Source: Acidobacteriota bacterium (lineage in GTDB: Bacteria > Acidobacteriota > Thermoanaerobaculia > UBA5066 > Gp7-AA6). Taken from it: a stretch of 64,000 nucleotides of DNA. Position 1 is the stretch's first letter; every line of letters starts with the position of its first letter. The notes beneath the pieces are model-generated. The model was given only the letters and a program-made list of their open reading frames with translations. It ran no database searches and was not told where the DNA came from. This document shows positions 4,585-29,201 of this stretch, in pieces. Both the position numbers and the translations under genes were made by a program. The DNA lies in the NCBI GenBank assembly GCA_031360505.1, contig JANMBR010000107.1:608-64607 (forward strand), read 5' to 3'.

Positions 4585-5709
4585 TCACCCCATTTCGCCC
4601 GGATAAAAGCAAGCGACCCGGTGGCCGGTTGCCGCCTCCGAAAGGGCCGGGGCCTCCTGGCTGCAGCGTGGACGCGCGATCGGGCAGCGCGGATGGAAAT
4701 GGCACCCCTCCGGGGGATTCACGGCCGAGGGCAGCTCTGCCGGCAGAGCGGCCGCCCGCGGCGGGGTCGAGGGATCCGGGCCGCCCGCGGCAGCGACGAG
4801 CGCGCACGTGTAAGGGTGAAGCGGCCGCGCGATGATCTCCTGCGCTGTGCCCTCTTCGACGATCGCGCCGAGATAGAAGACGGCGATGCGGTCCGAAACC
4901 CGGGACACAACGGCGAGGTCGTGCGAGATAAACAGGTAGGACAGCCCCGCCCGCTCGCGCAGATCGAGCAGCAGGTTGACGACCTGGGCCCCGACCGAAA
5001 CGTCGAGCGCCGAGACGGGCTCATCGCAGACGACCAGAAGCGGCCGTGTTGCAAGTGCACGCGCGATCGCGACACGCTGGCGCTGTCCACCCGAGAGCTC
5101 CGACGGGAATCGAAAGGCCGTCTCGGCGCCGAGACCCACGTCGGCAAGCAATTCCCGGACCCGTTCGGCGAGGGCTCGTCCCCGCGCCAGCCTCTGGACG
5201 CGCAGCGGTTCGGCGATCTGGTCTCCAGCCCGCATGCGAGGGTTCAACGAGTTCTGCGGATCCTGAAAGACCACCTGGAGCTCGCGCCGGCGCTTGCGCA
5301 GAGCGGAACCGGAAAGCGAGAGCCAGTCGGTTCCGTCGAACTCGATGCTGCCCGCGTCCGGCGGGACGAGGCGTGCAACGATTCGCCCCGCGGTGGTCTT
5401 TCCGCTCCCGGATTCGCCGACGAGCCCGAGCGTCTGGCCGGGAGCGATCTCGAAGCCGACCCCGCGCAACGCGGGCAACACCTGCCCCCCCGATCCGGAG
5501 AAACCGCGCGCGAGCGAGTACCGCTTCGTGAGCCCTTGCGCCCTCAGCAGCGCCCGCACGGCGGCTATCGCCGGGATCACGCGCCGCTCCCCGCGACCGG
5601 GCGGGAGAGAAAGCAGCTCGACTGCCCCTCGTCGCCGACGGGGTACAGGGGCGGCACGCTTGCGTCGCACGGAGCGAACCGATCCGGACAGCGCGGCGAA
5701 AACGCGCAC
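4585..5709 (-). CDS. oligopeptide/dipeptide ABC transporter ATP-binding protein (DppF/OppF-like). The true start is probably near 5580.
   Basis: 'LRAQGLTKRY', Walker A 'GESGSGKTT', 'LSGGQRQR' and a C-terminal oligopeptide-ABC extension 'HPYTCALV...CHFHPRCP'. The ORF's 5' extension overlaps the upstream ATPase. Confidence 0.85.
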   Translation of the reverse strand: MRVFAALSGSVRSVRRKRAAPVPRRRRGAVELLSLPPGRGERRVIPAIAAVRALLRAQGLTKRYSLARGFSGSGGQVLPALRGVGFEIAPGQTLGLVGESGSGKTTAGRIVARLVPPDAGSIEFDGTDWLSLSGSALRKRRRELQVVFQDPQNSLNPRMRAGDQIAEPLRVQRLARGRALAERVRELLADVGLGAETAFRFPSELSGGQRQRVAIARALATRPLLVVCDEPVSALDVSVGAQVVNLLLDLRERAGLSYLFISHDLAVVSRVSDRIAVFYLGAIVEEGTAQEIIARPLHPYTCALVAAAGGPDPSTPPRAAALPAELPSAVNPPEGCHFHPRCPIARPRCSQEAPALSEAATGHRVACFYPGEMG

Positions 5710-6602
5710 CCGCCAGATCGCCGCGCCGAAAGGTCCTCAAGAGCTCCGGCGATCGCCTCGTAGCGCTCGCCCCGAAGCCGCCCGGGCGCAAGCACCGGAA
5801 CCGAACGCAGGAGACCTCGCGTGTAAGGATGGGCCGGGGACCGAAGCCGCTCTGCTGTGCTGCCCTCTTCCACGACGCGGCCCGCATAGAGCACGAGGAG
5901 GCGGTCGCAGTGCCTGGCCACGACTCGAAGGTCGTGCGTGATCAGCAGGACCGCGAGGTCGCGCTCGCGCCGCAGCCGGTCGAGCAGCTCGAGGATCTGG
6001 ACCGCCACGGTGGAGTCGAGCGACGCCGTCGGCTCGTCGGCGAGGAGCACCTTTGGCCTCGCCGCGAGTGCGATCGCGAGGCAGGCGCGCTGGCGCAATC
6101 CTCCCGATAGCCGGTGCGGATACTCGCCGAACACCCGCCCGGGCTCCGGCAACGCCACCTCGGCCAGCACGTCCAGGGCCCGGCGCCGCGCTGCGGCGCG
6201 GGAGACCGGTTCGTGGAGGAGGATCGCCTCGACGACCTGCGCTCCGATCGTCTGCACGGGATCGAGTGCGGCCGCCGGCTCCTGGAACACCAACCCGATC
6301 TCTCGTCCCCGAACCTCGCGCCATTCGCGGTCCGATAACGTGGAGAGGTCGCGCCCCGCGCAAAGGACCCTCCCGGTCACGCGCGCGCCTTCCGGGGAAA
6401 GGCCCAGGATGGCACGCACGAGCTGGGTCTTCCCGCTGCCGCTCTCACCCACGACGGCCAGCGCCCGCCCCGCCCCGAGCGCAAACGACACGCCGTCGAC
6501 TGCGGGGCGCAGGACGCCGTTCACGGGCAACTCGACGCGCAGATCCTCCACCGAAAGAAGCGGCGCCGGTGTTTTCGCGAGGAGCGGGAAGGATGTCACC
6601 AC
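5577..6602 (-). CDS. oligopeptide/dipeptide ABC transporter ATP-binding protein (DppD/OppD-like)
   Basis: 'LSVEDLRVEL', Walker A 'GESGSGKT', 'LSGGLRQR' and a C-terminal 'HPYTRGLL...CAFSPRCP' domain. Confidence 0.85.
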   Translation of the reverse strand: MVTSFPLLAKTPAPLLSVEDLRVELPVNGVLRPAVDGVSFALGAGRALAVVGESGSGKTQLVRAILGLSPEGARVTGRVLCAGRDLSTLSDREWREVRGREIGLVFQEPAAALDPVQTIGAQVVEAILLHEPVSRAAARRRALDVLAEVALPEPGRVFGEYPHRLSGGLRQRACLAIALAARPKVLLADEPTASLDSTVAVQILELLDRLRRERDLAVLLITHDLRVVARHCDRLLVLYAGRVVEEGSTAERLRSPAHPYTRGLLRSVPVLAPGRLRGERYEAIAGALEDLSARRSGGCAFSPRCPDRFAPCDASVPPLYPVGDEGQSSCFLSRPVAGSGA

Positions 6603-9171: not shown

Positions 9172-9874
9172 CTAACCGCTCTGACCGCGACGGCGCTCCT
9201 GCCGCCCTCCGAAAGGCCCGGAACCCGCCTCGGGCGTCACCCCGCGGAAGGTCATCCGATGCTCGGGGCAAGGTCCGTAGAGCCGCAGCGCTTCCCAGTG
9301 CTCGGGGGTCCCGTAGCCCTTGTGCGACTCGAACCCGTAGACCGGATGGCGCCGTCCGAGCTCTCCGAGCAGCTGATCGCGGTGGACCTTCGCGACGATG
9401 GAACCTGCCGCGATCGACACCGAGAGCGCGTCGCCATGGATGACAGAGAGCTGGGGCACCCGGACCGCGGGAACGCGCACCGCATCCACGAGCAGCACGT
9501 CCGGCATCGGGTCGAGGCAAGAGACCGCCCGGCGCATGGCCTCCAGGCTCGCCCGCAGGATGTTCTCTGCATCGATCTGGCGAGCCTCCACGACGCCGAC
9601 GCCGACCGCCACCGCCCGACGCCGGATTTCACGATCGAGCCGGTCCCGTGAATCGGGATCGACGCGTTTGGAGTCGTCGAGACCGGGAAGCACGCAGCCC
9701 TCGGGAAGGATCACGGCGCCGGCAACGACCGGTCCCGCCAGCGAGCCGCGGCCCGCTTCGTCCACTCCGGCGATGTGCGTGAAGCCCCTCGCGGAGAGCT
9801 CCGACTCGAGGCGCGCCAGCTGGCGCAGACGACCCAGCTCGGCGAACAGGGCGGCGAGCGGGTCGGTCCTCACG
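9172..9874 (-). CDS. rnhB: ribonuclease HII
   Basis: Contains 'IAGVDEAGRGSLAGPVVAGAVIL' and 'DDSKRV' catalytic motifs. Start placed at an in-frame GTG (9872-9874) so the gene does not enter the repeat element; the ORF track extends it to 9936. Confidence 0.85.
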
Positions 9875-9883
9875 GAGCGGCGA

Positions 9884-10015
9884 CTAGTGTTCTGTAACCG
9901 AAGTATCGATCGCGCCAACCAGCTTCTCACGAGCACCGTGGCTCTCGCTCTTCGAGCCTTGTTGCATCATTCGAGCGGGGAGGTTGGTACCGTGACTCCT
10001 GTGACAGGACACTAG
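9884..10015. mobile_element. MITE-like ~132-bp repeat, copy A. It is CTAG-bounded with imperfect ~18-bp terminal inverted repeats GTGTYCTGTMACCGAAST.
   Basis: About 83% identical to the reverse complement of 29069..29201. Both ends read ctaGTGTTCTGT...ACAGGACACtag. It fills the rplS-rnhB intergenic space, and its right CTAG supplies the rplS TAG stop. Confidence 0.55.
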
Positions 10016-27791: not shown

Positions 27792-29123
27792 CTAGTTTCT
27801 CCGCTGATCCACCGGCCGATCCTGGTCCGATGCGCGGCGCCTCGGGCGTGGCGGCTCGGTCAGGACCACGCCCTCGCCTTCGAAGCGGATCTTCGGCGGA
27901 CTGGCGATGTCCGGCTGCATGACCTCCTCGAGGAACTGGTCGTCGAGAACCGACGCGACGAGATCGCCGCTCCAGGCCACGAGATCGCGCGAGGAGATGG
28001 AAAGCGGATACTGCGCCGACACCTCGTGCGCGAGCACCGGGCCGCCGACCGAAAAGACCACGCTGCCCTTGCCCTGCACTTTCAGGATGTCGATGCGGCG
28101 GCTGCGCCGAAAGTCGTGGATCGCGTCGAGCCGGAACGTGAGGCCGTGGTCGAGCGCCAGCAGCCGGCTGCCCTCGACGTGCAGCGTCTGCCCTGTCAGG
28201 TCGCGCCTGTAGGCGCGCCGGCCGGAGTCGTTGACGAGCAGCGTCCCGAGGCCCGTCGCCCGCAGGATCCGCTCGAGCGAAGTGCCCGCGAAGGCGGTCT
28301 CCGGCGTGAATCGGAACTTGCCGCTGTACCAGGCCACGCAACCCTTGCGCACGAAGACCGTGCCCCGGGAGGCCACTTCGAGCCCGCCCTCGGGCCGGAT
28401 CTTGAAGAGGGGGCGCGTCTCGGGAGTGGCGACCGCGATCGAGGCCGAACCCTCCGGGACTTCCGGAAACGCCGGGGCAAATCCGGGCTTCTCGACCCCG
28501 GCCGCATCGCTCACCGCCGCCTTCAGCGTCGGCGCCGCGTCCGAGAGCGATCCGCTTCGGGGCGCGCCGTCGCGGCCCGGCCGGCGCAGCGCCTCCTCGA
28601 TCTCCGTGACCCTTCGCCGCGCGCCCGCCACGCGCAGATGCTCGAGCGCGAGCCCGAGCTTGCCGCGCATCTGGTAGAGCAGTCCGAGGTACAGGTGGCT
28701 GCGCAGGTGGCCCGGCGCCAGCTCGATCGCCGACCGGAGCTCCTTTTCGGCCTCGGCGAGCCGGCCGGACTTGAAGAGGATGAGGCCGAGGTTCGACCGC
28801 AGGACTTCCGACGCCGGGTTCTCGGCGACCAGCGTGCGCGCCGCGTTGGCCGCCTCATCGTACCGGCCGCGCTTGAATTCAAGGATCGAAACCAGGTTGA
28901 GGACATCCTCGTCGTGCGGCCGGAGGGTCCGGGCCTGCTCGAGCTCCGTCCAGGCTTCCTCGAAGTGCGCCTCCCGCACCTCGCGCCGCGCGCGATTCAG
29001 GTGCAGGAGGAACAGTCCCTGATCCACGGGGGAAGGATCTCCGGCGGCCGGCACGTGCGCTGCCCGGACTAGTGTCCTGTAACCGAAGTCACGATACCCA
29101 CCCTCTTCGCTCGAAGGATGCAA
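27792..29123 (-). CDS. TPR-repeat / AIM24 (DUF124) domain protein. The true start lies downstream of the repeat element, at <29069.
   Basis: N-terminal TPR repeats ('AEKELRSAIELAPGHLRSHLYLGLLYQMRG'). The C-terminal ~230 aa resemble AIM24/DUF124. Confidence 0.65.
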   Translation of the reverse strand: MHPSSEEGGYRDFGYRTLVRAAHVPAAGDPSPVDQGLFLLHLNRARREVREAHFEEAWTELEQARTLRPHDEDVLNLVSILEFKRGRYDEAANAARTLVAENPASEVLRSNLGLILFKSGRLAEAEKELRSAIELAPGHLRSHLYLGLLYQMRGKLGLALEHLRVAGARRRVTEIEEALRRPGRDGAPRSGSLSDAAPTLKAAVSDAAGVEKPGFAPAFPEVPEGSASIAVATPETRPLFKIRPEGGLEVASRGTVFVRKGCVAWYSGKFRFTPETAFAGTSLERILRATGLGTLLVNDSGRRAYRRDLTGQTLHVEGSRLLALDHGLTFRLDAIHDFRRSRRIDILKVQGKGSVVFSVGGPVLAHEVSAQYPLSISSRDLVAWSGDLVASVLDDQFLEEVMQPDIASPPKIRFEGEGVVLTEPPRPRRRASDQDRPVDQRRN

Positions 29124-29201
29124 GAAGGCCCAAGAGCGAGAGACACGGTGGTCGTCAGAAGCTGCATGGCGCTATGGAGAGTTCGGTGACAGAACACTAG
29201 C
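29069..29201. mobile_element. MITE-like ~133-bp repeat, copy B (inverted relative to copy A)
   Basis: The reverse complement aligns along its whole length with 9884..10015, core '...AGCGCCA..CAGCTTCT.ACGA.CACCGTG.CTCTCGCTCTT...GCCTT.TTGCATC.TTCGAGCG...'. CTAG termini; the right CTAG supplies the TAG stop of the SLT gene. Confidence 0.55.

Follow-up and report, generated by a model that had tools for sequence, protein, structure and literature searches.

The window analysed here, a 64-kb stretch of DNA, contains two closely similar blocks at positions 9884–10015 and 29069–29200, and they raise the question of what kind of sequence they are, how they came to lie between the genes of two operons, and whether they do anything there. 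We consider it highly probable (roughly 93%) that both are copies of a non-autonomous MITE that carries the terminal inverted repeats (TIRs) of a subgroup of IS630-family insertion sequences. The features that support this membership are all observed: matching TIRs, a CTAG target with empty sites, a small size without a transposase, and dispersed copies. The assignment accounts for two otherwise unannotated 132-bp intergenic blocks and leaves the current understanding of transposons unchanged, the mobile DNA being of an ordinary kind.

In terms of sequence, the two copies are 83–86% identical in inverse orientation, with BLASTN of copy A against copy B returning 83.5% identity over 133 columns (E = 1.9e-33). 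When they are aligned with MAFFT together with 20-nt flanks, the likeness covers the full length and is confined between the CTAGs, in agreement with the initial annotation, which had described two inverted, full-length copies of ~83% identity. The terminal 15-mer CTAGTGTYCTGTMAC, searched with up to two mismatches, has four matches in the 64 kb, and these are the four copy ends; the expected count is 0.06, and four matches were reached in 0 of 100 shuffles. The portrayal of the repeat as CTAG-bounded and TIR-flanked is borne out by the occurrence of this 15-mer at all four ends and nowhere else in the window. Likewise, a profile HMM of 16 family copies finds nothing in the 64 kb beyond copies A and B. 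Two details required revision. The TIRs, put at ~18 bp and imperfect, are indeed imperfect but longer, with ~21 nt well conserved and imperfect pairing out to ~30 nt, and base 29201, given as the end of copy B, is already flank, the true limit being 29200. The element is 132 bp long, lacks a transposase gene and has a G+C content of 55–56%, as compared with 68% for the host.

Copy A (9884–10015, plus strand, including the flanking C-TA and TA-G) runs on the plus strand from a left end, CTAGTGTTCTGT, to a right end, ACAGGACACTAG. The left TIR (CTAGTGTTCTGTAACCGAAGT; 9884–9904, plus strand) is given with the target C and one TA copy (9885–9886) and matches the ends of full-length IS630-family elements; the right TIR (reverse complement CTAGTGTCCTGTCACAGGAGT; 9995–10015, minus strand) is given with the second TA copy (10013–10014). 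Under a TA duplication, the element proper of copy A would be 9887–10012. Copy B (29069–29200, minus strand) is inverted relative to copy A, with its left TIR (CTAGTGTTCTGTCACCGAACT on the minus strand) at 29180–29200 on the minus strand and its right TIR (CTAGTGTCCTGTAACCGAAGT) at 29069–29089 on the plus strand; here the element proper is 29072–29197 and the TA copies are 29070–29071 and 29198–29199. Both copies are delimited by the alignment, the 15-mer, BLASTN and the profile, and by empty orthologous sites (L135, L136 and L137 for copy A; L139–L142 for copy B).

A single open frame crosses the element. It encodes 42 amino acids (GTG to TAG), lies in reverse orientation and runs through the 132-nt copies at 9884–10012 (minus strand) and 29072–29200 (plus strand). 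In the 131-nt members of the family this frame is shifted, and it is therefore judged incidental; a peptide gene was rejected on the ground that the frame is not conserved among family copies. The earlier statement that the element holds no ORF is thus essentially right.

Both copies sit within operons that are transcribed from the minus strand. Copy A interrupts a conserved gene cluster, rpsP-KH-rimM-trmD-rplS-rnhB, between rplS (ribosomal protein L19, PF01245; 10012–10362, minus strand) on its upstream side and rnhB (RNase HII, PF01351 in orthologous loci; 9172–9873, minus strand) on its downstream side. The TAG stop codon of rplS (10012–10014, minus strand) lies within the CTAG target, in the right TIR of copy A, and the GTG start codon of rnhB follows 10 nt past the MITE. 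The arrangement at copy B, downstream of alaS, is similar: the stop codon of a gene for a lytic transglycosylase with an SLT domain (PF01464; 29197–29895, minus strand) is a TAG (29197–29199, minus strand) within the CTAG target, in the left TIR, and the gene for a TPR-repeat protein (27792–29054, minus strand) begins with a GTG 14 nt past the MITE. In the direction of transcription, the first end encountered is CTAGTGTCCTGT in copy A but CTAGTGTTCTGT in copy B, so the two copies point in opposite ways along the host mRNA. Among matches of the L19 and SLT proteins that bear a source name, the best are labelled Thermoanaerobaculia (Acidobacteriota), which points to this class as the source lineage.

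Orthologous loci without the element were found for both sites. For copy A, contigs that encode the closest relatives of the L19 protein were retrieved (L135–L138). Three of them, including L135, whose L19 is 97% identical, along with L136 and L137, have the sequence ...GAC TAG c..., in which one CTAG stands alone and the element is missing, and the rnhB start codon lies 16–23 nt after the rplS stop codon; in L138 the rplS stop codon is TGA and the CTAG is missing. The filled site in the window reads ...gaC-TA-[GTGTCC...GAACAC]-TA-Gtcgcc.... L135 belongs to the metagenome-assembled genome (MAG) MFD02134.bin.2.124 (ENA ERZ25039488), in which members of this repeat family occupy different loci. 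At the copy B site, contigs L139–L142, four in number and with SLT proteins that are 88–92% identical, carry the empty site ...cctcggCTAGcccgggg..., that is, ...cggCTAGccc... with one CTAG, and their TPR gene starts 14 nt downstream of the SLT stop codon, whereas the window has the element inside this same CTAG. The single intact CTAG of the orthologues at both sites, which the initial annotation had named as a check, indicates that both copies are independent insertions into a pre-existing CTAG; because each side of the insertion carries a restored target, the stop codon survives. These loci provide a clean comparison of filled and empty sites for an IS630-type MITE from a phylum that has received little study. 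L012, a contig of a second sample, encodes an identical L19 protein and has copy A in the same position; it represents the same species with the same insertion. Presence or absence of copies could mark strains.

IS630/Tc1-mariner elements duplicate TA and prefer CTAG, and the initial annotation had proposed a target and duplication of this type. The pattern fits the filled and empty sites described above. Among the matches listed, CTAG bounds 59 of 64 paired elements on either side, a preference that is partly ascertained because the one-end scan pattern used for the metagenomes demanded CTAG. Two further paired elements of the same 64 (L040 and L057, among the matches listed) combine a TTAG end with a CTAG end, as a 2-bp TA duplication in a TTAG target would predict and a 4-bp duplication would not. 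We therefore read the structure as probably C-TA-[element G...C]-TA-G, a reading based on these two TTAG/CTAG cases and on knowledge of the family, although the sequence alone does not strictly separate a 2-bp TA from a 4-bp CTAG duplication.

Read instead as CTAG-[TGT...ACA]-CTAG, the filled sites would contain a 4-bp duplication, and this second reading speaks in favor of different machinery, either an IS5-family transposase that duplicates CTAG/YTAR or a RAYT (IS200/IS605-like) that moves REP/BIME palindromes. IS5-group elements duplicate YTAR tetranucleotides, and REP units are ~35 bp in length and lack long TIRs. Such an origin is extremely improbable. The two TTAG/CTAG elements fit a TA rather than a 4-bp duplication, neither an IS5-type nor a RAYT-type gene is associated with the termini, and in the three long elements examined, the same termini bound a sole ORF that encodes an IS630-family transposase.

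Adjacent insertions were observed at two metagenomic loci, L111 (1380–1383) and L071 (119–122), where the terminus of a second element begins on the CTAG that closes the first. Such abutment would follow if every insertion restores, at its borders, a CTAG that can serve as a target.

The IS630-family assignment rests further on full-length partners. In the metagenomes, at least 25 long elements of 1136–1206 bp have the same 21-nt termini at both ends. Three were examined in detail (L028:941–2098, L087:105–1267 and L070:87–1265), and each has one ORF of 362–366 amino acids that matches the NCBIfam model NF033545, IS630 family transposase, at 270–277 bits (cutoff 100) and contains Pfam DDE_3 and HTH domains. 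An IS630-family transposase with matching TIRs, which the initial annotation had called for, is thereby found, and the identity of the termini to the sampled IS ends is 21/21 for the right end of copy B (L110) and 22/24 for copy A (L049). No autonomous IS with such termini is present in the 64-kb window by 15-mer and profile search. Outside the termini the correspondence ends: the similarity of the MITE to the 25 sampled full-length ISs stops 21–38 nt from the termini, and the interior is unrelated. Measured against these 25 ISs, the MITE is not recognizable as an internally deleted form of any of them.

In about half of the 25 long elements listed, the transposase ORF enters the right TIR, ends with ..RTSVTGH and uses the TAG of the flanking CTAG as its stop codon; the last seven transposase codons are thus encoded within the right TIR, as in L028, L087 and L070. 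When the 120 best-matching homologues are taken for one such transposase, 113 have a C-terminal ..GH, which indicates that the coupling of TIR and C terminus is a property of a large subgroup that spans multiple phyla. The family proved very large in the homologue search, where each of the 8000 candidates scored had E <= 1e-60, and it is distributed over several phyla; among these 8000 no tie of the IS to Thermoanaerobaculia was obtained.

This arrangement is reminiscent of IS870 of Agrobacterium vitis, which we take to be a member of the IS630 family, and of ISMt1. In IS870 and ISMt1, the TAG of the CTAG target is reported to serve as the transposase stop codon, so that a CTAG target is needed to complete the ORF (PMC13630536, citing Fournier et al. 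1993). In L028, L087, L070 and other partners, the flanking CTAG likewise supplies the stop codon of the transposase. The likeness is one of arrangement; unlike IS870 and ISMt1, which are autonomous and come from other phyla, the window holds only a non-autonomous derivative. In the plasmid collection, the annotated IS that comes closest is a plasmid-borne IS630-family element of Sinorhizobium medicae (WP_153417059.1, on NZ_CP140892.1), whose transposase is 63% identical in amino acid sequence to that of L087. Its ends, CTAGTCACCTGGAACTAAAATTC and CTAGTCATCTGAATCCGAAATTC, are flanked by CTAG and resemble CTAGTGTCCTGTAACTGAAGTT; however, the termini differ at about one-third of positions, the transposase has a TGA stop codon before the TIR, and the host is an alphaproteobacterium.

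From the matching termini and the filled and empty sites, the following course of events can be proposed. A transposase of the IS630 subgroup, supplied in trans, would bind the 21–30-nt TIRs; the element, of ~126 bp plus the duplicated TA, would be cut out and pasted into the TA of a CTAG, with duplication of that TA, a mode that is established for IS630/Tc1-mariner elements. In its present place the element is a hairpin-forming spacer of ~130 nt in each of two operons, in opposite orientations.

Further copies, another of the checks set out at the start, were found in related genomes and in metagenomes. A two-TIR pattern scan of species-representative genomes yielded 11 loci, in Acidobacteriota MAGs that include Vicinamibacterales and Acidobacteriaceae and in one 'Bacteroidetes' MAG of 30% G+C. 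The core of the window copies is common to 6 of these 11 loci, and the rest have the same termini with unrelated interiors. At least 16 copies with the same core and differing flanks were collected from several Acidobacteriota MAGs and from metagenomes, and the 16 that were aligned are 67–100% identical to copy A; at least four are in MAG MFD02134.bin.2.124 (L003, L007 twice and L010) and two are in OTE_51_metabat_380. The 33-nt core pattern searched against the contigs of species-representative genomes gave 0 matches. A single-TIR scan of metagenomes returned at least 120 loci, and pairing of termini in the window and all fetched loci identified at least 39 short elements of 128–306 bp. Short elements in this size range that lie outside the same-core set have these termini around different cores. 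A full-text literature search found no published description of an IS630-type MITE in Acidobacteria, and the family is probably undescribed so far.

Several of these loci merit separate mention. In the 'Bacteroidetes' MAG MFD02923.bin.1.10 (30% G+C), two AT-rich MITEs of 136–144 bp (L004:1965–2108 and L009:5235–5370) have the same 15-nt termini as the Acidobacteriota elements and interiors that are akin to each other and not to the window family, which implies that the same transposase subgroup operates across phyla. Most of the single-terminus matches listed lie within ~150 nt of a contig end (for example, L015, L019, L022, L033, L046, L067 and L081), a pattern that makes the repeat and its IS family a common point of assembly breakage in metagenomes from soil and peat. 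For Acidobacteriota genomes and MAGs, whose assemblies are broken by repeats of this sort, the termini and the profile offer a means of masking or annotating this one. Two matches in viral contigs of IMG/VR (L013:138–158 and L014:9369–9389) were rejected as elements: the 21-nt terminus lies within a phage ORF and lacks a partner terminus in its vicinity, and these matches are attributed to chance.

An RNA reading of the two blocks was also weighed. In addition to the transposon, the initial annotation had offered a structured small RNA with a conserved core. On such a reading the blocks would be a small noncoding RNA gene or a cis-regulatory RNA, with the core under selection and the terminal stem belonging to the RNA fold instead of being a transposase binding site. 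Each copy does form a long hairpin that is more stable than those of shuffled sequences (z = -2.5 to -4.2 on either strand), and a 33-nt core is well conserved between copies A and B. The stability is, however, equal on both strands, as it would be for any TIR element, and the copies are opposed relative to host transcription, so that polarity is not fixed. Rfam 15 gives no match at the gathering score for the whole window and none at E <= 10 locally, and no promoter-like or terminator-like sites were seen in scans.

Covariation was assessed on the family alignment. The RNAalifold covariation term for the 16 copies is +0.25, and the nearly invariant TIR stem is the only region that is paired consistently, the interior helices breaking in diverged copies. 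The covariation score of the minimum free energy (MFE) structure is 0.074 for copy A, as compared with 0.070 when shuffled (148 of 500 shuffles as high), and 0.087 for copy B, as compared with 0.086 (196 of 500 as high); these scores are also indistinguishable from those of slid controls. The core, cited as an RNA signal, fares no better: other elements have identical termini with unrelated cores, and core conservation therefore reflects shared descent within one subfamily. Together with the absence of the element at the orthologous sites of close relatives, the missing Rfam match, the lack of covariation above controls and the opposed orientations make a structured RNA very improbable, and the MITE reading is retained.

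A MITE, once inserted, could in principle be put to use by its host. As part of the transcript, the hairpin would then serve as an RNase III site, as a determinant of mRNA stability or as a decoupler of translation. By analogy with the Correia elements of Neisseria, it might adjust rnhB relative to rplS and the TPR gene relative to the SLT gene. Both copies are well placed for such a role, within operons and with the next start codon following after 10 and 14 nt, in an interval that spans just 14–23 nt in relatives; the predicted stem in the transcript is about -50 kcal/mol in either orientation, and copy A is kept at the same site in the second sample (L012). The position at the stop codon is nevertheless accounted for by the CTAG target alone, the copies differ in orientation, close relatives lack the element, and no conserved motif was seen outside the TIR. 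We regard exaptation of this kind, including its proposed effect on the two downstream genes, as unlikely; it would be an add-on to the MITE explanation and not a replacement for it, and nothing here requires one. A function of the element's own has no evidence in its favor.

The choice of landing site is best viewed against the abundance of CTAG in the window. There are 21 CTAG sites, as compared with 69.6 ± 8.0 expected from dinucleotide-preserving shuffles, a depletion of ~3.3-fold, and the MITE ends make up 4 of the 21. Several others lie at the ends of ORFs, as at 27792, the stop codon of the TPR gene. With CTAG depleted in a genome of 68% G+C, TAG stop codons preceded by C would constitute a large share of the available targets, and the scarcity of CTAG is the simplest explanation for the stop-codon position of both copies. 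A long open frame that ends at the TAG is also found at 15 of the 17 ordinary CTAGs of the window, a comparison that discriminates poorly in G+C-rich DNA. The two insertions illustrate how TAG stop codons may become preferred, insertion-tolerant landing sites in a CTAG-depleted, high-G+C genome. A more elaborate proposal is that the element targets CTAG stop codons, lands at operon junctions in a manner that spares both genes, and that its hairpin then re-tunes expression of the downstream gene. This scenario is slightly more doubtful than exaptation as such; if true, it would describe a natural 'operon-junction insertion' regulator family that is spreading through Thermoanaerobaculia.

The MITE assignment invites comparison with two named families of similar build. 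RUP (repeat unit of pneumococcus) is a noncoding, multicopy element of ~100–130 bp with IS630-like TIRs, insertion at TA and a long hairpin, and IS630-Spn1 is its proposed mobilizer (PMC2229807). The present element resembles RUP in its approximate size, its IS630-type TIRs, TA insertion, copy number above one and long hairpin, but base composition and host phylum (Firmicutes for RUP and Acidobacteriota here) are unrelated, as the sequence probably is too. The contiguous TIR of RUP is listed as 9 bp, as compared with ~21–30 nt here, and a strict CTAG preference and insertion at stop codons are features of the present element. The Correia/NEMIS elements of Neisseria are MITEs of ~107–155 bp with TIRs of ~24 bp and a TA duplication that often lie in transcription units, where the hairpin can affect mRNA (PMC2229807). 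They share with the present element the plan of a small TIR element with a TA duplication inside transcription units, whereas a relationship in sequence is implausible, and the present element has neither an IHF site nor a promoter-like motif. The transposase that mobilizes Correia elements is not established, whereas the present element has a matching IS family. Membership in Correia, RUP or another named MITE family is implausible, given the differences in host phyla and base composition, and the resemblance is functional only.

One other set of repeats was seen in the window. Three 54-nt direct repeats at 1567–1620, 5053–5106 and 6066–6119 are 72–76% identical and contain GCGCTGGCGCTGTCC...CAGCTC. 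They look like a conserved coding motif of paralogous genes rather than a mobile repeat.
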